Source: a virus (Duplodnaviria; Heunggongvirae; Uroviricota; Caudoviricetes). From it: a DNA stretch of 21,640 nt. This document shows, piece by piece, positions 75 through 21,640 of the stretch. Every line of letters starts with the position of its first letter. Positions within the stretch are counted from its first letter, which is position 1. Position numbers and translations under genes: made by a program. A model generated the notes under the pieces. The model did no database searches, was not told where the DNA came from, and worked only from the letters and a program-made list of their open reading frames with translations. The stretch is from positions 1 to 21,640 of the IMG/VR virus record IMGVR_UViG_2671180903_000016. One strand, 5' to 3'.

Positions 75-1361
75 TTACCCTGCTTTCTTATGGGGCATAC
101 ATGGGACACTTTCAGATAGTCTTTTGTTAAGGAGTTCTATCTGTTCGTGATTGTTGTCTTTCATCCATGCTCCGTAAACATTGAATACCATTTGTGCGTT
201 TGTGTGGCCCATCTGGCTTGCGATAAAACTAGGATTAGCTCCTGCGGCAAGTGACCAGCATGCATAAGTATGCCTGGATTGGTACGATTTTCTGTGTCTC
301 AGACCTGCGCGTTTTAAGATACTTGTCCATGACTCCCTGATGGAGTCAACCTTGTAGTGAGGTCCGGACAACTGCTGCTGTTTTGTTACCTGAGGACTAA
401 AAACAAAAGTGCATTTATGCACAGCAGTTCTCCCATATTCCCTCTGCTTCACCTCTACAGAATGTTGCTTTCCAAGCATGGTCATTTCCGCCTGGCTTTT
501 AAGAGCATCAATAGCTGGTTGAACCAGATGAATTGTCCTTCCGGTGCCTGCATCGGTTTTTGGTGGAGTGAATTCGCCAAGTTTTGTATAATTTCTACGG
601 ATGGTTATAGTCCTTGCTTTAAGGTCTATATCTTCCCATGCCAGCGATACCAACTCCCCGTGACGAATACCCGTGTATACAGCGAGAATCCACAGGTTTT
701 TTGTTTGTTGATGACGGCAAGCCTCAATAAAACGAATAAATTCGTCACGGGTGAGAGGATCTGGTTTTACCTTGGACTTTTTTAAGGGAGCCAGACCGTT
801 AAATGGGTTTCCTGAGGTATAACCATTATCTGTTGCAAATTGAAACATTCCAGCTATGGTTGTCATATAGTAGTTTACCGTGACCACTGAGCGCCCTTTT
901 ATGGAAGAAGTCTTTCCATTAGAAAGCTTTTGGTAACCGGTCAACAAATCTCTCCTTACGAAAAGTAAATCCTCTTTTGTTATGGATGAAACCAGTTTTT
1001 TTTCACCTAACATTGGTAACATGTTTTTAATTACTGACTGGTAACGGTTAAGTGCATTCGCACAAATCTCAATTTTCTTAAGGTCCAACCATTTTTCCGA
1101 AAGTGCCTTAACGGTTATCTCTCTTTTTCCCAGACCAAAGTGTTTCAGGTTAGGGGAATTAGGGAACTGCGCGGCGTAGTCGAAACTCCCCATTCTGATT
1201 GCAAAACAAACGGAAGTGCGAAGTTCACCAGCAATCTTCCGGTTTTTGGCTGTGTCAGGAACACCGAGGTTTTCTCTGACACGTTTGCCATTATAGTGAA
1301 ACCATATACGGAGTGATCCTCCATGGTTTTCAACGCCTGTCGGGTATGATGCGTTACTCAT
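75..1361 (-). CDS. int: Phage tyrosine integrase (428 aa)
   Basis: Full-length ORF at the prophage edge, read toward the window start; integrase-like translation; GGGAGG RBS upstream of the ATG at 1361; excisionase-like gene immediately upstream. Confidence 0.9.
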   Translation of the reverse strand: MSNASYPTGVENHGGSLRIWFHYNGKRVRENLGVPDTAKNRKIAGELRTSVCFAIRMGSFDYAAQFPNSPNLKHFGLGKREITVKALSEKWLDLKKIEICANALNRYQSVIKNMLPMLGEKKLVSSITKEDLLFVRRDLLTGYQKLSNGKTSSIKGRSVVTVNYYMTTIAGMFQFATDNGYTSGNPFNGLAPLKKSKVKPDPLTRDEFIRFIEACRHQQTKNLWILAVYTGIRHGELVSLAWEDIDLKARTITIRRNYTKLGEFTPPKTDAGTGRTIHLVQPAIDALKSQAEMTMLGKQHSVEVKQREYGRTAVHKCTFVFSPQVTKQQQLSGPHYKVDSIRESWTSILKRAGLRHRKSYQSRHTYACWSLAAGANPSFIASQMGHTNAQMVFNVYGAWMKDNNHEQIELLNKRLSESVPCMPHKKAG

Positions 1362-6456: not shown

Positions 6457-6589
6457 TCTTTGGGACTCCTGGCTGATTAAGTATGTCGATAAGGCGTTTC
6501 CATCCGTCACGTAATTTACGGGTGATTCGTTCAAGTAAAGATTCGGAAGGGCAGCCAGCAACAGGCCACCCTGCAATGGCATATTGCAT
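6425..6589 (-). CDS. cIII: CIII, FtsH (HflB) inhibitor (54 aa)
   Basis: [54 protein letters not shown] matches lambda CIII; AAGGAG RBS; overlaps the kil start as in lambda. Confidence 0.85.
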   Translation of the reverse strand: MQYAIAGWPVAGCPSESLLERITRKLRDGWKRLIDILNQPGVPKNGSNTYGYPD

Positions 6590-6661
6590 GGTGTGCTCCT
6601 TATTTATACATAACGAAAAACGCCTCGAGTGAAGCGTTATTGGTATGCGGTAAAGCCGCAC

Positions 6662-7709: not shown

Positions 7710-8093
7710 TCACCTCGCCGTCAGTTGTTTTGATTTCCGGTAGCCTGCCGCGTAAATGGCTACGTTTGGAAGACATACACCAGTTTCTGGTTGCTTATGT
7801 CCAAACTCATTCGCGTACACAATGGCCGCTCGCTCCAGATTGCGTCTGTATTCTTTCTGTTGCCAGATCACGTCCTGTGCCATGAACTTAATTGGCTTAG
7901 CGTCTTCTATGCGCTCAGGCGTTTCGTGAGTACCTTTAGCCTGAATCTGCGCTCTGCTTAGAGTAGGGCGGTGTAATACTTCTGAACTTATTGCTTCTTC
8001 GCGGGCCAGTACGCCGTTAGCTAATGCCTTTGCCTTTAAACGCTCACGACGACGAGAACGTGAATTGCCTTTGAACTGAGTTCTGCGTGTCAT
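7710..8093 (-). CDS. N: Antitermination protein N (H-19B/933W type), 127 aa
   Basis: Arginine-rich N-terminal motif (RRTQFKGNSRSRRRERLKAK); first gene downstream of the nutL-like hairpin; strong CAGGAGG RBS; resembles Stx-phage N as recalled. Confidence 0.75.
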   Translation of the reverse strand: MTRRTQFKGNSRSRRRERLKAKALANGVLAREEAISSEVLHRPTLSRAQIQAKGTHETPERIEDAKPIKFMAQDVIWQQKEYRRNLERAAIVYANEFGHKQPETGVCLPNVAIYAAGYRKSKQLTAR

Positions 8094-8258
8094 ATAGACC
8101 TCCTGATGAACTTTGGTGGTGTGGTAGGTGGGAGACCCATTTCGACCTGTTTCGGCCTACTTCAATTCGGCAATAGTCCCGCAGGCCTCGCCGCTTTACG
8201 TGCGACATATTCCCGTCCATGAACCCTTCACCACACCCCAAAGTTCACTTTGGTTATT

Positions 8259-8273
8259 GCGCTTTGTCAGCGC
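8259..8273 (-). promoter_or_regulatory. nutL boxB-like hairpin (GCGCU-GACAA-AGCGC on the leftward transcript)
   Basis: 5-bp stem with 5-nt GACAA loop about 170 nt upstream of the N start; same loop as the hairpin downstream of cro. Confidence 0.5.
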
Positions 8274-8339
8274 CGTAGATTCATATTCGAATCGTTGTAT
8301 ATTTACCGCCCTGGTGAGTAATGCGTCCTGCTGATGGGT

Positions 8340-8400
8340 GAGCTTTATCGGAATGATAAATTAATGGCAATAGCAAAATGATAAATTCTCTTGGTTTTCA
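8340..8400 (-). promoter_or_regulatory. Putative oL/pL region with two direct AATGATAAATT repeats
   Basis: AATGATAAATT at 8352-8362 and 8377-8387; the same TGATAAAT motif recurs in the cI-cro intergenic region. Confidence 0.45.
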
Positions 8401-8559
8401 AATATCGTATTGATTCTTATGGTGTTTTATTTTGTTGTAGGAATTCGACAGGATAAATAAAGAGATTTGAGGGAGATCTGGATTGCGTTGTTTAGCAAGT
8501 TGTATCTATTTATTTTTCAACAAATACAATTGGTTATGTGTTTTTAGGTGTGGGATCGT

Positions 8560-8592
8560 GAGGCAAAGAAAACCCGGCGCTGAGGCCGGGTT
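8560..8592 (-). terminator. Rho-independent terminator ending the cI-cassette operon
   Basis: Minus strand: AACCCGGC-ctcagc-GCCGGGTT followed by TTCTTTG, directly after the stop of the 206-aa gene. Confidence 0.6.
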
Positions 8593-8598
8593 AATGCG

Positions 8599-9219
8599 TT
8601 AATGCTGGGGAGTGATTTTTTTGTTGTCTGTTGGCTGGGTATTTTGTGGCGGCGCTTGCAAAGTGGAAGGCTGTTGCAAAGGTGCGTGGTCTGACTTTAA
8701 AGCTGATACCAGCCCGGGAATCGCAACTATTACAGCGATAATGACACTAAAAATGGCTAATCGTATAGAAATACCCGACTGAACACCACTAATTGCGGTA
8801 TTAACCCCTGTTATTTGTCCTTGAATTCCTTCGAATCTCCCATTAATTGCTTTTATATCGCCAGCAGCGCTATCCATCTTTCCATCGATCTTGGACGATA
8901 GAGAGCTTATGGCTGCATTAAGTGATGCAAATTGGACATTAACGCTTTCACGAGATAGAGCCATGTCAGCCCTAATGGAAGAAGCAATAGACTCCATCTC
9001 TGCTTTATTAGCAGCTAAGCGAGCATCAAGTTCCTCTCTGCTGATCGTTCCCACTTCTTCCTCCGTTTGTGGCGGTTTTATGTAATTATTTTGCACCTTG
9101 GTGGGAGAATTATCAAATTCAGCCTCAAAATCGGAACCGCCAACAACCTTCAACCTCCGGCTTTCAGATATGTTGGTGTCTTGCTTTCCATGATTATTTA
9201 AATTACTGTCGTCACTCAT
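8599..9219 (-). CDS. Hypothetical membrane-anchored protein (206 aa); cassette gene C
   Basis: ATGA overlap with the upstream gene; N-terminal polar region, central helical region with heptad-like spacing, one hydrophobic segment (IRLAIFSVIIAVIVAIPGLVSAL) and a Pro/Gln-rich tail. Confidence 0.7.
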   Translation of the reverse strand: MSDDSNLNNHGKQDTNISESRRLKVVGGSDFEAEFDNSPTKVQNNYIKPPQTEEEVGTISREELDARLAANKAEMESIASSIRADMALSRESVNVQFASLNAAISSLSSKIDGKMDSAAGDIKAINGRFEGIQGQITGVNTAISGVQSGISIRLAIFSVIIAVIVAIPGLVSALKSDHAPLQQPSTLQAPPQNTQPTDNKKITPQH

Positions 9220-9650
9220 AATAGCTCTACGGTGAAAAATGATTCATTTTTATGAAGTTCATTTTTAGGGTCTTCATTATCTTGCAATATCCCTATAACA
9301 CTATACAGCCCTTTAGCTGGGACCCTAATTTCTTTCAATGTTACTATTACCTGTCCGCCAACCCCTGTTTCAAAATGGCTATCTTTCGTATCGATGAAAA
9401 GTGAAACTGATTCCGAAGAGCCGTCAGGGAATTGAATTTCCTCACCTTTTTTTATAATTAGGTGCGCGGGGATTACCATAATACCCAAATTATATCTTGA
9501 ATTTGGTTTCAACCCGATCATACCAACCCTGAAATCAATTGATAGCCGCGCAGGAAATTCATTGCATGTAAAATTAAGCGTCGGTTGGTTGGGTTCTTCG
9601 CTGCTATCAAATGGGGTTATAAAAGATATTCTTTCTAAATTAAGTGCCAT
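9216..9650 (-). CDS. Hypothetical protein (144 aa from the ATG at 9650; track ORF extends to 9704); cassette gene B
   Basis: Strong RBS GCAGGAGAATTT before the ATG at 9650; the stop overlaps the gene C start; no recognisable motif. Confidence 0.65.
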   Translation of the reverse strand: MALNLERISFITPFDSSEEPNQPTLNFTCNEFPARLSIDFRVGMIGLKPNSRYNLGIMVIPAHLIIKKGEEIQFPDGSSESVSLFIDTKDSHFETGVGGQVIVTLKEIRVPAKGLYSVIGILQDNEDPKNELHKNESFFTVELL

Positions 9651-9720
9651 AAATTCTCCTGCATCGCTGTATGCTCTACGAGCATCTCTGCGATCATCCA
9701 TCATCCAAACGTCTCTTCAC

Positions 9721-10062
9721 TCATCCGAAGAAGCAGCAATCCGGGTCAGCACGCACAAGCTCAAGCGCATCAGTCAGCGAAAGTTCAGTACTGTACTGAT
9801 GCCATTTCATATCCTTCCGCATCCAATAGATTTTCCATCTATCCAGAGAACGTATGTACTTGATTCTTGCTGATGGCAGGATGTTTGTTTCACCTGGGTT
9901 GCCCTGCCACACGGGGCGCTGTTCGCCGATATCTATCGTTTGGTCATTGATGCTATAAACAATATCCAGTTCATTGCGGATATGTTCAGGCGGCCTTATG
10001 CTTTCAATGAATTGGTGAACTTCTTTTTTGACCGCTTGATATTCAAGGTCAGTGAACGCCAT
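9721..10062 (-). CDS. Hypothetical protein (113 aa); cassette gene A, immediately downstream of cI
   Basis: Strong RBS GAGGAGG 5 nt before the ATG; same strand as cI, 60 nt after its stop; family not confidently recognised. Confidence 0.7.
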   Translation of the reverse strand: MAFTDLEYQAVKKEVHQFIESIRPPEHIRNELDIVYSINDQTIDIGEQRPVWQGNPGETNILPSARIKYIRSLDRWKIYWMRKDMKWHQYSTELSLTDALELVRADPDCCFFG

Positions 10063-10122: not shown

Positions 10123-10827
10123 TCACGAACTTTTCAGCCACTCCCTTGCCTCGATGTCATCCAGATGGCGAGATTGCTTCAGAATACCAGCTACATACTC
10201 CACCTTTGCTACTTGATGATAAGGCAACGTTATAGGCCTGTGATCCTGGTTAATGCTTGTAAATTGGTATTCTCCATCTCTGTCATAGCCAAGAACCTTA
10301 ATCATGTTGTGTCCTTCAACGGTTCTGACAAACACCTCGTCACCCGGGAATACTTTGGTGTTAGGCTCAATGAGTACATATTCTCCTGATTTTATTCTGG
10401 GCCACATGCTGTCTCCTTTCACACGAAGACCAAAGGCATCTGGATCATCGCTATAAATTTTGAGCCACCCATCGCGCTCTTCGGTCATCTCGATGGCACC
10501 ATCAACACCAAGAATTGCCTCACCAACCACGCGCACTAACCCTTTTCTTACCTGACCGACAAAAGTTAAAGAATCTGAGCATGATGCAATTGGTGTTACA
10601 TCATGTACCAAATCAAGCCACCCATTAGGTAACCCAAGCGCGGCTTCAAATTTTCTTGCTAGTTTATCCCCTATGTTTCGAGTGCTTTTTTCACCGGAGA
10701 CTTGCGTGAGTTGAGAAGGGCTAACCCCAAGCTTATCGGCAAAGCTTGCATTAGTGTTACCCGCGATTTTTTTATGCTCATCTAGCAAAAACGCCAGATT
10801 CGATTTGCGAATATCTTTGTTTTCCAT
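10123..10827 (-). CDS. cI: CI-type prophage repressor (HTH N-terminus, LexA/S24-like C-terminus), 234 aa
   Basis: N-terminal HTH region and a C-terminal GDSMWP motif with a downstream Lys, typical of autocleaving S24 repressors; divergent from the cro-like gene across an operator-rich gap. Confidence 0.85.
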   Translation of the reverse strand: MENKDIRKSNLAFLLDEHKKIAGNTNASFADKLGVSPSQLTQVSGEKSTRNIGDKLARKFEAALGLPNGWLDLVHDVTPIASCSDSLTFVGQVRKGLVRVVGEAILGVDGAIEMTEERDGWLKIYSDDPDAFGLRVKGDSMWPRIKSGEYVLIEPNTKVFPGDEVFVRTVEGHNMIKVLGYDRDGEYQFTSINQDHRPITLPYHQVAKVEYVAGILKQSRHLDDIEAREWLKSS

Positions 10828-15616: not shown

Positions 15617-15708
15617 TTGACGCGATGATTTATTCGGGGCTATATTCCTCACGCGCCAGCAAAATCTGGCGTCGGGATTAGCACCCCGGATGTTTACGGA
15701 GCGATATG

Positions 15709-15729
15709 AGACGCGCCCGCGTCTTTTTT
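15709..15729 (+). terminator. Terminator-like hairpin after ninE
   Basis: AGACGC-gccc-GCGTCT followed by TTTTTT. Confidence 0.5.
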
Positions 15730-15875
15730 CATATCGTTTGCACAGTCACATTCGCGATTTATGGCGGGCTGTGTGGGGGAGCTGAAAGGCTCGCCGGTTT
15801 CCGTACCCGGTAGTGCTAACCCCGCACAGTTCGCCACCATGATGATTAGCACCTGACGGTGGCGATAATGTCCAA

Positions 15876-16598
15876 ATGTACGGAGTTATCGTTATGGCCA
15901 CTCAGATTTCTGTCGAAACTCTTTCCCCAATTACACACAACCAAATTCCCGTTATCACTACCGAGTTACTGGCACAGCTTTACTGTACCGAGATCAACAA
16001 CATCAAAGTAAATTACACCCGTAATTCCGAGCGTTTTGTTGAGGGTAAACACTTTTTCAAGGTTGTTGGTGATGAGTTGAAAATTTTGCGGGTTACTTTA
16101 AGTAACTCACAAAATTTGCAACCATCTTTAAGAGGGTTACAAATTTCCCCGAAAGCCCGCTCCCTCATCCTCTGGACAGAACGCGGAGCAGCCCGTCACG
16201 CCAAAATGCTCGAAACCGATCAGGCGTGGGAAGTGTTCGAAAAACTGGAAGACTGCTATTTCAGCCAGTGCGAGAAAAATACTGGCAAACAAGAGAAGAA
16301 GCTCAACGGGCTTTCCGCAAAAGAAACAGACAGCCTTGTATGGCTGTGGGATTATGCTAACCGCTCACAGGCATTATTCCGCGAATTGTATCCAGCGCTA
16401 AAGCAAATTCAATCGAACTATTCCGGCAGATGTTACGACTACGGTCATGAGTTCTCGTATGTTATTGGAATGGCGAGAGACGTTTTAATCAATCACACAC
16501 GAGATGTTGATATTAATGAGCCAGACGGACCAACGAATCTTTCCGCATGGGTAAGGCTTAAGAACAAAGAATTACCTCCTTCACTACATCGCTACTGA
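15876..16598 (+). CDS. ORF6N/KilA-N-type domain protein (antirepressor-like), 240 aa (alternative start at 15894)
   Basis: N-terminal segment ([40 protein letters not shown]) fits the ORF6N-domain pattern as recalled; followed by a strong terminator. Confidence 0.6.
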
Positions 16599-16666: not shown

Positions 16667-17395
16667 ATGACAATGAACGAGCTGATAAATAGCAACGTCA
16701 TCAAAATTACCAGCATTGAAATCTCTGAGCTTACAGGTAAGCGTCATGACAATGTGAAACGTACTATCGAAATGCTGGCTAAAAATGGTGTTATCCGACA
16801 TCCTCAAATTGAGGATTGTGGAAGAATCAATGGGTTAGGCTTAAATCAAAGTTTTCGTGTGTATGTATTCGAAGGCGAACAAGGTAAGCGAGACAGCATT
16901 ATTGTCGTTGCCCAGTTGTCGCCGGAATTCACCGCTCGTCTTGTTGACCGTTGGCGAGAGCTTGAAGACGCTGCGGTTAATATCCCCAAAACTCTACCAG
17001 AAGCGTTGCGCCTTGCTGCTGATCTTGCTGAGCAGAAAATGCAACTGGAAAACCAGCTCGCAATTGCCGCACCTAAAGTTGAGTTTGCCGATCGCGTTGG
17101 CGAGGCCAGCGGAATTTTGATTGGAAACTATGCAAAGGTTGTTGGTATTGGTCCAAACAAACTGTTTGCGTGGATGCGCGAACACAAAATCCTTATTGCT
17201 TCAGGTTCCCGGCGCAATGTGCCAATGCAGGAATATATGGATCGCGGCTATTTCACAGTGAAAGAAACAGCGGTCAATACAAATCACGGAATACAGATAT
17301 CGTTCACCACAAAAATCACCGGGCGTGGTCAACAGTGGCTGACCAGAAAGCTGCTAGATAACGGAATGCTTAAAGTAACAGGGGAGGCTGCTTAA
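16667..17395 (+). CDS. Rha-family regulatory protein with C-terminal KilAC/antirepressor domain (242 aa)
   Basis: N-terminal Rha-like region ([24 protein letters not shown]) and C-terminal Ant-like region as recalled; GAGAGGA RBS. Confidence 0.75.
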
Positions 17396-18000
17396 TGGCT
17401 AAACCAGCGCGAAGGAAATGCAAAATCTGTAAGGAATGGTTTCACCCGGCATTCTCAAATCAGTGGTGGTGCAGCCCGGAACACGGAACTAAATTAGCGC
17501 TCGAACGACGAAATAAAGAACGCGAAAAGGCGGAAAAAACAGCAGAGAAGAAACGACGACGAGAGGAGCAGAAACAGAAAGATAAAATTAAGATTCGAAA
17601 ACTCGCCTTAAAGCCCCGCAGTTACTGGATTAAACAAGCCCAACAAGCCGTAAACGCCTTCATCAGAGAAAGAGACCGCGACTTACCATGTATCTCGTGC
17701 GGAACGCTCACGTCTGCTCAGTGGGATGCCGGACATTACCGGACAACTGCTGCGGCACCTCAACTCCGATTTGATGAACGCAATATTCACAAGCAATGCG
17801 TGGTGTGCAACCAACATAAAAGCGGAAATCTCGTTCCGTATCGCGTCGAACTGATTAACCGCATCGGGCAGGAAGCAGTAGACGAAATCGAATCAAACCA
17901 TAACCGCCATCGCTGGACTATCGAAGAGTGCAAGGCGATCAAGGCAGGGTACCAACAGAAACTCAAAGACCTGCGAAACAGCAGAAGTGAGGCCGCATGA
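17395..18000 (+). CDS. ninG: NinG (Rap) structure-specific endonuclease, 201 aa
   Basis: Near-identical to lambda NinG as recalled ([10 protein letters not shown]...[10 protein letters not shown]...); overlapping start. Confidence 0.9.
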
Positions 18001-18191
18001 CGTTCACCGTAAAAACCATTCCTGACATGCTCCTTGAGGCATATGGAAATCAGACCGAGGTAGCCCGAATACTGAACTGCAATCGTGCCACAGTCAGAAA
18101 ATACATTGGCGATAAAGAAGGGAAAAAGCACGCCGTCGTCAATGGCGTCCTTATGGTTCATCGCGGATGGGGTAAAGATACTGATGCGTGA
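17997..18191 (+). CDS. ninH: NinH (64 aa)
   Basis: [58 protein letters not shown] matches lambda NinH as recalled. Confidence 0.85.
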
Positions 18192-18618
18192 TATCCGGCA
18201 GGTTCTTGAGCGCTGGGGTGCATGGGCGGCAAATAACCATGAGGATGTTACATGGTCGCCCATTGCTGCCGGATTTAAGGGACTGATCCCCGAAAAAGTA
18301 AAATCACGTCCACAGTGTTGTGACGATGACGCGATGATTATATGCGGGTGTATGGCTCGCCTTAACAGGAACAACAGCGATCTGCATGACTTGCTGGTTG
18401 ATTATTACGTGTTGGGGGAGACGTTCATGGCGCTGGCACGGAAACATGGGTGCTCTGACACCTGTATAGGTAAACGCCTTCACAAAGCGGAGGGGATTGT
18501 TGAAGGCATGCTGATGATGCTGGGAGTGAGGCTTGAGATGGATCGGTATGTTGAGCGTGAATTGCCGGGAGGGAGAACCTCTGTATTTTATCAGCGAAAA
18601 AATAGTTTACGATCGTAA
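18184..18618 (+). CDS. Q: Late antiterminator Q, 933W type (144 aa)
   Basis: [25 protein letters not shown]...[17 protein letters not shown] matches the Stx-phage Q as recalled; ATG overlaps the ninH stop. Confidence 0.8.
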
Positions 18619-18868
18619 AAATCTGCATATCATGATAAGAGTGGTTACATTGCCACGCTGCTTAACCCGCTGATGCGCGGGTTTTTTTGTACCCAGAATC
18701 CTGTGAGCTATACGGAAAGTACACAGAAAGGAAGGTGCGACCACAATTAATAACAAAATCTTAAAAATTGCACATGGCACTATTAGTTTTCTAAATATTG
18801 TGTATTTTTTGTATTGCAGGATGACCCTGTAACGAAGTTTGCGTAACAGCATTTTGCTCTACGAGTTT

Positions 18869-18897
18869 GCCAGCCTCCCCCAGTGGCTGGCTTTTTT
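18869..18897 (+). terminator. Rho-independent terminator (candidate tR') downstream of Q
   Basis: GCCAGCC-tcccccagt-GGCTGGC followed by TTTTTT. Confidence 0.6.
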
Positions 18898-18899
18898 AT

Positions 18900-19019
18900 G
18901 TCCGTAGCGTCAAAGCAGCAATGTCGCTGGGGCGTCGTGCAATTGGCGTTGAGCTGGAGACTGAACGTTTTGAGCAGACGGTCAGGGAAGTTCAGGATTT
19001 AGTCAGTCAGAACGGATGA
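18900..19019 (+). pseudogene. 3'-terminal remnant of a DNA methyltransferase gene
   Basis: The in-frame translation SVKAAMSLGRRAIGVELETERFEQTVREVQDLVSQNG resembles the conserved C-terminal motif of N6/N4 methyltransferases; no upstream catalytic region is present. Confidence 0.4.
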
Positions 19020-19059
19020 TATTGCAGGATTAGTTACGTACCGTTATTATCCTGCGCCC

Positions 19060-19135
19060 GGCCCTTTAGCTCAGTGGTGAGAGCGAGCGACTCATAATCG
19101 CCAGGTCGCTGGTTCAAATCCAGCAAGGGCCACCA
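19060..19135 (+). tRNA. ileZ: tRNA-Ile2-like (anticodon CAU)
   Basis: Hand-folded cloverleaf: acceptor GGCCCTT/AAGGGCC, anticodon loop CTCATAA, T-loop TTCAAAT, 3' CCA; close to E. coli tRNA-Ile2 as recalled. Confidence 0.85.
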
Positions 19136-19144
19136 TATCACATA

Positions 19145-19221
19145 CCGCCATTAGCTCATCAGGACAGAGCGCCAGCCTTCGAAGCTGGTTGCGCGGGGTT
19201 CGGGTCCCCGGTGGCGGTCCA
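19145..19221 (+). tRNA. tRNA-Arg-like (anticodon UCG by hand fold), atypical
   Basis: Cloverleaf with perfect anticodon stem CCAGC/GCTGG and loop CTTCGAA; unusual C1-G72 pair and T-loop TTCGGGT. Confidence 0.55.
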
Positions 19222-19234
19222 TTATCGGTATTCT

Positions 19235-19311
19235 GCGTTGTTAGCTCAGCCGGACAGAGCAATTGCCTTCTAAGCAATCGGTCACTGGTTCGAATCCAGT
19301 ACAACGCGCCA
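19235..19311 (+). tRNA. tRNA-Arg (anticodon UCU)
   Basis: Acceptor GCGTTGT/ACAACGC, anticodon stem ATTGC/GCAAT, loop CTTCTAA, T-loop TTCGAAT, 3' CCA. Confidence 0.85.
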
Positions 19312-19550
19312 CACTTATTTTCCCTGGCTCGCTTTTGCGGGCCTTTTTTTTAAATGTCTCACAATTCAGGCGGTTGACTGTTGTCTGGTTTGCGGGGAGT
19401 TTGTTAAAAGAAACTGGCATGGTGAATCCCCCTGTGCGGAGGGGCAATCAGCAACCAGGTATATGTGATAATCGCGGATTCAGGTGCTGATACTGAATTC
19501 ACCGGGAGGCACCCGGCACCATGCAAGAAAAAGAATGTGCATGCAAACAT

Positions 19551-19574
19551 GCCCCTCTCCGGAGGGGCTTTTTT
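19551..19574 (+). terminator. Rho-independent terminator between the tRNA cluster and the esterase gene
   Basis: GCCCCTC-tccg-GAGGGGC followed by TTTTTT. Confidence 0.7.
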
Positions 19575-19701
19575 ATGGGTAAAAAATGCCCGAATGGGTT
19601 CGGGCAATAGCATGAGATACTGATATTGTTGTGTTGTTATCGTGTGGATTTTAACCAGGGTTTATCAGGCTGCGCAACTGCGTGGCCTTTTTTCATTTCT
19701 T

Positions 19702-19746
19702 GGGCTGTAGTCCCCGTGTGTCATTCAGGCTTCCGGACTACAGCCC
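19702..19746. repeat. Perfect 12-bp inverted repeat (GGGCTGTAGTCC ... GGACTACAGCCC) with 21-nt spacer
   Basis: Read directly; sits about 45 nt upstream of the esterase start codon. Confidence 0.7.
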
Positions 19747-19789
19747 ACTCCATATCTGATTTAATACACTATCCCGGCCGGGAGGAATA

Positions 19790-21640
19790 ATGACATTTAA
19801 ACATTATGATGTTGTCAGGGCGGCGTCGCCGTCAGACCTTGCGGAAAAGCTGACACACAAACTGAAAGAGGGCTGGCAGCCGTTTGGTAGTCCGGTGGCC
19901 ATAACCCCTTATACCCTGATGCAGGCGATTACAGCAGAAGGTGATGTGGTGGTCAGTGGTGCAACTGAGCCGGATTGGTACTACGTCATCGTACTGGCCG
20001 GGCAGTCCAATGCCATGGCTTACGGTGAAGGGCTTCCGCTGCCGGATTCATACGATGCTCCGGATCCGCGCATTAAACAGCTGGCGCGCCGCAGTACAGT
20101 GACGCCGGGTGGGGCTGCCTGCAGATATAACGATATTATTCCGGCCGACCACTGCCTGCATGATGTGCAGGATATGAGTACGCTGAATCATCCGAAGGCA
20201 GACCTGAGCAAAGGGCAGTACGGCTGTGTCGGCCAGGGTTTACATATTGCCAAAAAACTGCTCCCGTATATCCCGAATAACGCGGGGATCCTGCTGGTAC
20301 CATGCTGTCGTGGTGGTTCGGCATTCACCCAGGGCGCGGAGGGGACATTCAGTGCGGACACGGGGGCCAGCCAGGATTCGGCACGCTGGGGTGTGGGTAA
20401 ACCGTTATATCAGGACCTGATTGCGCGCACTAAAGCTGCATTACAGAAGAACCCGAAAAATGTGTTGCTGGCGGTGTGCTGGATGCAGGGAGAGTTTGAC
20501 ATGAGCGCCGCCACCCACGCACAGCAACCTGCGCTGTTTACAGCCATGCTGACACAGTTTCGTGCTGACCTCTCCGTGTTTAACGCGCAGTGCCATGGTG
20601 GCAGTGCTGCAGATGTGCCGTGGATTTGTGGTGACACGACGTATTACTGGAAAAATACATACGCTACCCAGTACGACACCGTGTACGGCGGGTATAAAAA
20701 CAGGGAGAGTGAGGGCGTTTATTTTGTGCCCTTCATGACAGACGGTAACGGCGTCAATACCGCCACTAACGCGCCGGCAGAAGATCCGGATATTCCGGCA
20801 TCAGGATATTACGGTGCGGCATCGAGAACGAATGGAAACCAGGTATCATCAAACCGCCCGACACATTTCAGTTCATGGGCGCGCAGGAGCATTATTCCGG
20901 ATCGTCTGGCAACCGCTATTCTGAACGCAGCCGGGCGCACCTCAGCCTTCATCAGTGGTAAGGCACCGGAAATTAAACCCTCGCCCGGCGGCAACACGCC
21001 ATCGGGTCCGTCTGCAGATACGTCCGTTCGCACAATCTCCCTGCTGCCGGCAGCCGGAGAGGCTGCTGCGCAGGGCTGGAGCATTAAGGATGGCGGAATT
21101 CAGTTGTCAGATGGTGTATTTAAGATCACCAAGCAGAGCAATAAAACCTGGTCCCTGACGCATCCGGTGGATGACGCAATTACCCTGCTGACACAGGGCG
21201 GCAGACTGACCTGTAAGTTCCGCCTGTCAGGCGCACTGACCAACAATCAGTTCGGGCTGGGGATTTATCTGTATACGGATGCTCCCGTTCCTGATGGTGT
21301 GGCGATGACGGGTACCGGTAATCCGTTCCTGATGTCGTACTTCACTCAGACCACTGACGGCAGAGTGAATCTGATGCATCACAGGAAAGCCGGAAACACG
21401 AAGCTGGGGGAGTTCGGCGATTACGGTAACGACTGGCAGACGCTGGAGCTGGTGTTCACCGCCGGCAGTGCCACGGTTACTCCGAAACTGAATGGAGTGG
21501 CTGGCCCGGCATTCCAGGTTATAAAAGACAGTCTGACACTGGGACTGAATGCGCTGACGCTGACGGATGTTACAAAAAATGCAGCGTATGGCGTTGAGAT
21601 AGAAAGTCTGATGCTGGAGATAAATGCACCGGCAGCATAA
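19790..21640 (+). CDS. NanS-p-like 9-O-acetyl sialate esterase (N-terminal DUF1737-like, SASA/SGNH esterase core), 616 aa
   Basis: GGGAGG RBS; GQSN motif (VLAGQSNAMAYGEG) and overall architecture match the large esterase ORF found downstream of stx in Stx phages, as recalled; stop at the window end. Confidence 0.75.
   Translation: MTFKHYDVVRAASPSDLAEKLTHKLKEGWQPFGSPVAITPYTLMQAITAEGDVVVSGATEPDWYYVIVLAGQSNAMAYGEGLPLPDSYDAPDPRIKQLARRSTVTPGGAACRYNDIIPADHCLHDVQDMSTLNHPKADLSKGQYGCVGQGLHIAKKLLPYIPNNAGILLVPCCRGGSAFTQGAEGTFSADTGASQDSARWGVGKPLYQDLIARTKAALQKNPKNVLLAVCWMQGEFDMSAATHAQQPALFTAMLTQFRADLSVFNAQCHGGSAADVPWICGDTTYYWKNTYATQYDTVYGGYKNRESEGVYFVPFMTDGNGVNTATNAPAEDPDIPASGYYGAASRTNGNQVSSNRPTHFSSWARRSIIPDRLATAILNAAGRTSAFISGKAPEIKPSPGGNTPSGPSADTSVRTISLLPAAGEAAAQGWSIKDGGIQLSDGVFKITKQSNKTWSLTHPVDDAITLLTQGGRLTCKFRLSGALTNNQFGLGIYLYTDAPVPDGVAMTGTGNPFLMSYFTQTTDGRVNLMHHRKAGNTKLGEFGDYGNDWQTLELVFTAGSATVTPKLNGVAGPAFQVIKDSLTLGLNALTLTDVTKNAAYGVEIESLMLEINAPAA

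Follow-up and report, generated by a model that had tools for sequence, protein, structure and literature searches.

An stx-less slot behind a 933W-type Q–tRNA block in a mosaic lambdoid prophage

The window, by which we mean the whole 21,640-nt stretch of viral DNA analyzed here, carries an integrase gene at its left end and a late region at its right end, in which an antiterminator gene and three tRNA genes are followed by the interval 19312-19789 and an esterase gene. The features leading up to the cargo slot of this region are listed below; prophage loci fetched for comparison carry handles such as L001.

75-1361, minus strand: integrase (Arm-DNA-bind_2 and Phage_integrase domains)
18184-18618, plus strand: antiterminator Q of the 933W (Q933) type, 144 aa (139/144 residues identical to 933W Q; Pfam Phage_antitermQ, E = 5e-52)
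18606-18633, plus strand: late promoter PR', TTTACG-16-TATCAT (promoter scan; colinear with 933W pR', offset 16939)
18664-18690, plus strand: intrinsic terminator tR', directly 3' of PR'/qut (terminator scan; equals the 933W terminator 20726-20748)
18867-19019, plus strand: 50-aa 'DNA methylase' remnant ORF (ORF list; DNA methylase/methyltransferase in Stx2 phage records)
18869-18897, plus strand: second terminator hairpin, overlapping the 5' end of the methylase remnant (position from the 933W annotation)
19060-19135, plus strand: tRNA with anticodon CAT, ileZ, of the tRNA-Ile2 type (ARAGORN; Rfam tRNA, 72.5 bits)
19145-19221, plus strand: tRNA-Arg (TCG), argN (ARAGORN; Rfam, 47.9 bits; 5 differences from 933W argN)
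19235-19311, plus strand: tRNA-Arg (TCT), argO (ARAGORN; Rfam, 70.1 bits; 1 difference from 933W argO)
19326-19351, plus strand: intrinsic terminator after argO, left edge of the cargo slot (terminator scan; 933W annotation; alignment)

The block from Q to the tRNA genes closely follows that of phage 933W. Window 16940-19352 is 94.4% identical to 933W, and the elements annotated there (pR', qut, two terminators, the tRNA promoter, ileZ, argN, argO and the pre-stx terminator) all have counterparts in the window at one constant offset. PR' (18606-18633), tR' (18664-18683) and the post-argO terminator (19326-19343) were recovered independently by promoter and terminator scans, and the last of these, which lies just upstream of stx in 933W, has an identical sequence in the window. 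The first-pass annotation, made from the sequence alone, had described a 933W-type Q, an Ile2-CAU, Arg-UCG and Arg-UCU tRNA trio and a run of terminator-like hairpins, and our analysis bears out each of them. For the hairpins, eight terminator-like sites were found in 18550-19850, as against 1.6 ± 1.5 in shuffled sequences. The window thereby holds the 933W-type late regulatory module, namely Q933, PR', qut/tR' and ileZ-argN-argO. The methylase-remnant ORF (50 aa) has no Pfam match; clusters of such 50-aa remnants have been described (PMC10462455).

ARAGORN labels the CAT tRNA as Met. The gene is identical to 933W ileZ at 76/76 positions and to K-12 ileX, annotated as tRNA-Ile(CAU), at 68/76, and these matches support the Ile2 reading despite the label. 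Kinship with ileX/ileZ rather than with tRNA-Met is therefore the supported reading on sequence grounds, the lysidine modification itself being only predicted. We notice that the three tRNA genes vary unequally. When the window is compared with L002-L013, ileZ is unchanged in all 10 loci that have it, whereas argN shows 1-8 differences in every locus compared except L009, which is identical to the window. The single difference of argO from 933W is one base 3' of the anticodon, at gene position 38, where the window has A and 933W has G. In L001, a prophage of strain MB9-1, a lone 'tRNA-Met' (19937-20012) resembles ileZ in its 5' part (window 19060-19123) and argO in its 3' part (19280-19311), and the Rfam tRNA model gives it only 37 bits. 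It looks like a hybrid, as if recombination in the T-arm had deleted argN and the intervening halves.

The interval 19312-19789 that follows the tRNA genes is 478 bp long, ORF-poor and strongly folded (z = -3.76). Its features and the gene behind it are as follows.

19349-19356, no strand: cargo-free junction (alignment with 933W; slot lengths)
19388-19580, plus strand: STnc100-family sRNA gene, at the EcOnc27/PasD-related position (Rfam RF02076, 149.9 bits, gathering score 47)
19581-19642, minus strand: AgvB anti-sRNA, a GcvB sponge by homology, convergent with STnc100 (Rfam RF02702, 96.5 bits)
19667-19694, plus strand: terminator-like hairpin with a 9-bp stem and T6, overlapping the region upstream of agvB (terminator scan)
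19702-19746, plus strand: perfect inverted repeat in the leader of nanS-p, 12-bp arms GGGCTGTAGTCC and GGACTACAGCCC, loop of 21 nt (sequence; MFE fold)
19790-21640, plus strand: NanS-p-type sialate O-acetylesterase homologue, 616 aa (Pfam DUF1737, SASA and DUF6645, all above cut-offs)

The first-pass annotation had seen only hairpins in the interval, a description that the two Rfam matches (STnc100 and AgvB) overturn. The STnc100 match covers model positions 1-206, of which two internal stretches are deleted in the window, and the RNA has its own terminator at 19551-19568 on the plus strand. At the homologous place in 933W, STnc100 scores 207.7 bits, and both 933W and a Stx1a prophage have it in the same position, 3' of stxB. 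The AgvB gene is identical to the Rfam consensus at 62/62 positions, over the full length 1-62, the conserved 3' terminator domain included, and well above the gathering threshold of 56 bits. This copy contains CAACACAACAA, and with it the GcvB-target mimic CACAACA of the 5' domain, a motif defined by Tree et al. (2014; PMC4104026), and it ends in its own terminator at 19606-19587 on the minus strand. The homologous 933W interval holds STnc100 and AsxR, a paralogue at the position of AgvB, while that of the Stx1a prophage holds STnc100 and a borderline AgvB-like RNA. A scan for consensus sigma-70 promoters gave no site for STnc100 or agvB; by eye, we notice a TAAAAT -10 at 6 nt upstream of the AgvB 5' end.

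The two hairpins between agvB and the esterase gene are conserved to different degrees. The hairpin 19667-19694 is conserved in 933W, L004 and L008. For the inverted repeat 19702-19746, neither a U-tail nor an Rfam match was found; its arms are conserved and its loop varies in 933W. The fetched loci give five distinct upstream sequences, most of them identical across this hairpin, and in the Stx1a prophage L004 the repeat has an identical sequence.

Convergent sRNA genes of this kind were described by Tree et al. (2014; PMC4104026), who reported that the sequence downstream of the Q-antiterminated PR' accepts 'moron' insertions and located such genes in Sp3, Sp4, Sp5 (3' of stx2B), Sp9, Sp10, Sp11, Sp15 and Sp17. 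In that work, AgvB (Sp10, Sp17) and AsxR (Sp5) have a common 3' domain and different 5' seeds, and AgvB antagonizes GcvB and helps growth in bovine rectal mucus, its Hfq-dependent sponge activity on GcvB having been shown experimentally only for the Sakai copies (PMC4104026). In later papers, STnc100 is noted at 75 nt past the stx2 operon and is related to PasD, which lies upstream of the phage esterase gene. Judged by its sequence, the interval is the known convergent pair of an STnc100-type and an AgvB sRNA gene with terminators, an arrangement already published (PMC4104026). The two small ORFs of the interval (75 aa and 54 aa) have no Pfam match. We considered a protein-coding reading of these ORFs and rejected it; the RefSeq call at this place is itself an incomplete pseudogene. 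The tRNA-to-nanS-p interval should be annotated as STnc100-type and AgvB sRNA genes, where RefSeq has a pseudo 'hypothetical protein'.

The esterase gene lies exactly where the first-pass annotation put a 616-aa positional NanS-p homologue. Its product is 53% identical over the full length to the 645-aa NanS-p of 933W, and 80% identical to the 631-aa NanS-p that adjoins stx2a in phage 86. In SGNH block IV it reads RPTH, as in phage 86, where this unusual motif was reported by Pascal et al. (2023). These identities, together with the common motif and the three domains, identify the gene as a NanS-p allele in the canonical position; the activity of its SASA (SGNH esterase) domain on 5-N-acetyl-9-O-acetyl neuraminic acid is only predicted. 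The possibility, raised with the first-pass reading, that the gene is not the NanS-p orthologue found next to stx thus finds no support. The exact 616-aa protein occurs in 167 index blocks and in many prophage contexts, and in L006-L012 its gene precedes holin and lysozyme genes.

Between the tRNA genes and nanS-p, where 933W carries stxAB, the window has no toxin gene. The first-pass annotation had delimited a gap of about 480 bp here without an ORF resembling StxA or StxB, and both its limits and its lack of toxin ORFs hold. In tblastn searches of the six frames of the window with StxA2 and StxB2 of 933W, StxA1a and StxB1a, the best E value was 0.29 and the weak matches were scattered, none of them notable in the interval. 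With blastn-short, the 933W stx2 and Stx1a cargo DNA matched the window only in chance 11-17-mers. Re-inspection therefore gave no stx-homologous ORF anywhere in the window. Measured against the Stx-converting phages, stxA and stxB are lacking downstream of Q and PR', and relative to 933W the whole cassette is missing. Since no cargo lies between the argO terminator and the sRNA module, no toxin would be made from this locus. Q933 and ileZ-argN-argO are therefore unreliable proxies for stx2, as PCR or k-mer markers placed on them would be positive for an stx-free prophage.

Pairwise alignment located the junction precisely. Homology to 933W continues through the post-argO terminator to GCGGGCCTTTTTT and restarts at TGTCTCACAATTCAGG (window 19356). 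Between these points 933W has about 1.33 kb of cargo that the window lacks, from the stx2 promoter region through stxA and stxB to about 66 nt past the stxB stop. The alignment leaves no more than 6 nt (TTTAAA) unassigned at the junction, and they are right-flank sequence in other prophages: in L003 the right-flank homology begins at 19347, and L008 reads TTAAATGCCTCACAATTCAGG. The junction is a clean empty site without a scar. We also notice that the stx2 cargo (933W, L002 2410-2420) and the TerB/DUF3927 cargo (L005 8867-8877) open with the same 10 nt (TATCTGCGCC), which follow one variable base 3' of the argO terminator and are absent from the empty allele. This common start could be a cassette boundary or chance.

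The two flanks of the junction differ in their kinship. On the left, identity to Stx2a phages is 94-98%, and 18600-19349 reaches 98% to many of them. The right flank (19355-19897) is about 74% identical to 933W and phage 86, and about 72% identical to the stx-free phage phi296. At ≥95% identity and ≥80% coverage, the right-flank allele was found in none of 50,697 phage records, and a chimeric query, in which the end of the stx2 cargo was fused to the right flank of the window, gave no full-length high-identity match in complete E. coli genomes. On these two negative results, the right flank has not been seen beside stx in the collections searched. The idea that stx2 adjoins this flank in some sequenced STEC was rejected on the chimeric-query search of these genomes.

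These flanks bear directly on whether stx has recently been lost. Such a loss, of the 'EHEC-LST' type, would make the window a former Stx2a phage that lost its toxin genes either through a deletion or through recombination with another, stx-less prophage of the same host. The high identity (94-98%) of Q, PR', the methylase remnant, the tRNAs and the terminator to Stx2a phages, which extends up to the exact base where the stx cargo starts, is what such an event would leave on the left, and a preprint offers repeated stx loss as one explanation for esterase-sRNA modules without stx. However, alignment and remnant search revealed neither a scar nor any remnant of the stx promoter, stxA or stxB. 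The right side also fits poorly, being 74% identical to Stx2a phages, with AgvB in place of AsxR and an esterase only 53% identical to that of 933W, and no searched genome or phage has stx beside it.

The state of the slot in other prophages places the junction in a wider context. The slot length, taken as the distance between the argO end and a fixed anchor in STnc100, falls into four classes.

103-105 nt: the window, L001 and L009; empty
138 nt: L008 and L011, with a PF03589-type antiterminator; empty, 33 nt longer
797-798 nt: L005, L010 and L012; TerB and DUF3927, about 0.7 kb
1434 nt: 933W; stx2

We then counted the junction types with 75-bp queries across each of them in 5,426 complete E. 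coli genomes, accepting matches that cover ≥80% of the query. The empty junction is present in 846 genomes, the TerB/DUF3927-type in 786 and the stx2-type in 551. In this count of complete E. coli genomes, the slot without stx outnumbers each of the two filled states. The first-pass annotation had treated the choice between stx lost and stx never present as a surprise, which these counts do not sustain; the stx-less configuration has already been described and is commoner than the stx2-filled one in the complete genomes searched. That stx is an alternative cargo at the PR' moron site was described qualitatively by Tree et al. (2014; PMC4104026), and the census adds a quantitative picture, in which a fixed, recombination-defined site takes several alternative cargos, stx among them. 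A search for the exact junction pattern in 185,579 species-representative genomes gave 0 matches, a number that is no guide to spread beyond E. coli.

The empty junction occurs in diverse hosts and contexts. At ≥99% identity it is found in 499 records, including APEC and environmental strains. It is 100% identical in the Rac (ttcA)-site prophage of O157:H7 MB9-1 (L001), behind a DUF1133-type Q, and about 95% identical, in the 138-nt variant, behind the PF03589-type antiterminator of L008 and L011. That non-STEC strains have the identical junction, as do prophages with unrelated Q genes, speaks against a recent loss of stx. On the other hand, O157:H7 PV15-279 has all three junction types together, and strains like it, in which filled and empty slots coexist, would offer the substrates for an exchange by which stx could be lost.

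A different cargo might also have been lost. The slot could once have held the TerB and DUF3927 cassette, which is the most frequent cargo before this exact esterase allele. Among the eight identical-esterase matches listed, four (L005, L007, L010 and L012) have TerB in the slot; DUF3927 is also present in L005, L010 and L012, and L006 has DUF3927 alone. L005 and L012 further carry a Q933-type Q and the tRNA trio, and in CB9615 the series Q933-tRNAs-TerB/DUF3927-esterase is about 98% identical. Nevertheless, homology between the TerB loci and the window restarts only at 19399, and the window holds no TerB remnant. Window 19353-19398 thus comes from the empty-type allele (as in L001 and L009) and not from deletion of a TerB allele. 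We consider this origin very unlikely.

Beyond the late region, the window resembles prophages of another kind. Its segment 7649-18000 is 98.3% identical to the stx-negative mlrA (yehV) prophage of O55:H7 USDA5905, and the esterase gene is 97.4% identical to the one there, while Q and the tRNAs of that prophage differ from those of the window. In a whole-window megablast against the 5,426 complete genomes, the same prophage was the best match (89% coverage at 97.4%). In USDA5905, the counterpart of the first ~54 nt of the window falls in the annotated mlrA CDS. The window thus opens inside mlrA (yehV) and leads directly into the integrase gene; yehV also serves as the chromosomal site of Stx1 prophages in O157:H7.

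Several modules of the early region deserve mention in their own right. A lambda cIII thermoregulator (Rfam Lambda_thermo, 88.5 bits) lies at the cIII start (6544-6602, minus strand). Three co-oriented ORFs of 206, 162 and 113 aa (8599-10062, minus strand) are located directly downstream of a cI-like repressor gene (10123-10827), a position taken by rexAB in lambda. The 113-aa product is a DUF3024 protein that matches the PADLOC candidate defence model PDC-S43 (E = 7e-42), and the 206-aa and 162-aa products have no Pfam or PADLOC match. Farther right, Rfam gives c4-a1b1, isrK and C4 antisense RNA in series (15640-15841, plus strand), and an antirepressor gene (15876-16598; ORF6N and P22_AR_C) lies just 3' of them. 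The segment 15640-16598, which lies in the nin region, resembles a c4-ant immunity module of the P1/P7 type, and the same arrangement is present in USDA5905 and in the Stx1a prophage of 13E0725.

The closest relative that has the junction is L009 (CP148523.1), a finished chromosome in which Q933, the tRNAs, the empty junction, the sRNAs and the 616-aa esterase stand in the same order at 99.9% identity. The genes beyond this series in L009 are lambda-type head genes (Nu1, GpA, gpW, portal, S49, gpD-like and gpE-like), so that only the nin-Q-tRNA block merits the name 933W-type. We notice that L009 carries an IS50-like element in its STnc100 region (8079-9642), with a Tnp_DNA_bind and DDE_Tnp_1 transposase and the ends CTGTCTCTTGATCAGATCT and ACTTGTGTATAAGAGACAG; its 8-9-bp target duplication corresponds to window 19432-19439.

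Judged on these comparisons, the 933W-like part amounts to only about 1.3-2.4 kb (nin-Q-tRNAs), and the window as a whole is best described as an ordinary E. coli lambda-like mosaic prophage with a common cargo-free allele. The first-pass description of a Stx-phage-type late region is thus accurate for the nin-Q-tRNA part, but does not extend to the early region and the esterase gene, which match the stx-negative O55:H7 prophage at 97-98%.

A mosaic of this kind could be produced by the assembly itself, if the tRNA and terminator repeats of co-resident lambdoid prophages had joined two prophages in silico. None of the complete E. coli genomes in the collection has the whole window, or 18100-20000 as one uninterrupted piece, which marks this exact mosaic as uncommon; a 501-bp piece spanning the junction has a 100% match in a different prophage, from O157:H7, and EHEC genomes hold up to 14 copies of related sequence. 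The independent chromosome CP148523.1 argues against an artefact, as its order is the same and its identity is 99.9% on both sides of the IS insertion. L008 and L011 also have the junction order behind another antiterminator type. A chimeric assembly is accordingly hardly credible to us.

Meanwhile, the 98% identity of the early region to a stx-negative O55:H7 mlrA prophage further weakens the case for recent stx loss, which we regard as unlikely. We favour, with a probability of roughly 85%, the reading that a mosaic lambdoid prophage here has its PR'-proximal 'moron' slot in a cargo-free state, and that the interval is not the site of a local stx deletion. Support for a cargo-free allele comes from the scar-free junction, the divergent AgvB-type right flank and the early region resembling that of a stx-negative prophage. 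It comes also from the occurrence of the same junction behind unrelated Q genes and in non-STEC strains, and from the want of a stx-bearing sibling with this flank. Together, this evidence favours the spread of a cargo-free allele by modular recombination rather than a local or recent deletion of stx. The first-pass annotation had expected the junction to tell a never-toxigenic relative from a phage that lost stx. The junction goes part of the way, as its lack of a scar favours the cargo-free allele; because recombinational replacement of a stx-bearing right half in a toxigenic ancestor, which we hold to be unlikely, would leave the same clean junction, however, ancestry is not provable from sequence.

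Under the cargo-free reading, the absence of stx would be a slot allele that the mosaic inherited via homologous exchange among lambdoid prophages. The conserved module that lies downstream of stxB in Stx phages (STnc100 on the plus strand, AgvB on the minus strand, the two hairpins and nanS-p) directly abuts the argO terminator in the window. By analogy with lambda and 933W, and with the loci of Tree et al. (2014; PMC4104026), PR' transcripts would end at tR' in a lysogen, and the tRNAs and the two Hfq-binding sRNAs would be made from their own promoters. AgvB may sponge GcvB and thereby de-repress peptide and amino-acid transporters such as DppA (PMC4104026). Upon induction, Q-modified RNA polymerase would pass all five terminators and reach nanS-p and the lysis genes. 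For the sRNA promoter activity and the Q-dependent read-through at this locus, the expectation rests on homologues.

We also speculate that the locus is a recombination-ready 'landing pad', or itself a recombination product, in which an mlrA/yehV lambda-like prophage has acquired the high-expression Q933-tRNA module of Stx2a phages with an empty slot, a reading that we hold to be doubtful. If it were true, one exchange with a co-resident Stx2 phage, guided by 98% identity on the left and by the common sRNA/nanS-p module on the right, would give rise to a new type of Stx2 phage with an AgvB-type downstream module, or has just done away with one. The combination of Stx2 with such a module was found in no sequenced Stx phage or complete genome searched.

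Among known systems, the late region of 933W and Sakai Sp5 has the same gene order as the window, Q933 - PR' - ileZ argN argO - [stx2AB] - STnc100/EcOnc27 and anti-sRNA - nanS-p. The two Q proteins are 97% identical, ileZ and the terminator after argO do not differ, and the NanS-p domain architecture is the same. A convergent anti-sRNA with a conserved 3' part is equally placed, being AsxR in 933W and AgvB in the window. In contrast, the window has no stx promoter, stxA or stxB, and its early region is of a different phage type. The segment from stxB to nanS-p in 933W is only 74% identical to its homologue in the window, and the esterases measure 645 and 616 aa, respectively.

The Sakai Sp10/Sp17 AgvB loci (PMC4104026) are likewise convergent sRNA pairs that lambdoid prophages without stx carry at their PR' moron site, and the AgvB of the window equals the Rfam consensus built from the Sp10/Sp17 genes. 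In the window, however, the AgvB module is coupled to Q933 and a complete tRNA trio, whereas the MB9-1 prophage has a DUF1133-type Q and one hybrid tRNA. Prophages with TerB/DUF3927 cargo (O55:H7 CB9615, MFDS1001074, L005, L010 and L012) differ in having about 0.7 kb in the slot and a STnc100 region whose 5' part is unlike that of the window. Yet L005, L012 and CB9615 carry Q933 and the tRNA trio as in the window, CB9615 with Q933, tRNAs, TerB/DUF3927 and esterase at about 98% identity, and L005, L010 and L012 encode the identical 616-aa esterase.

The stx-free phages phi296, phi315 and phi367 (Traversvirus tv86), TL-2011a and PPwrbA_EH2201 also have a Q933-type Q, the methylase remnant and the tRNA trio like the window. 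In these phages, as in the window, the tRNAs are followed by a stx-less stretch (about 530 bp) and then NanS, but from the tRNAs to NanS their sequence is only about 71% identical to that of the window. These phages differ in their 645-aa type of esterase and their 933W-like (podovirus) backbones, and phi296 itself is an isolated stx-free phage of the Stx-phage genus Traversvirus.
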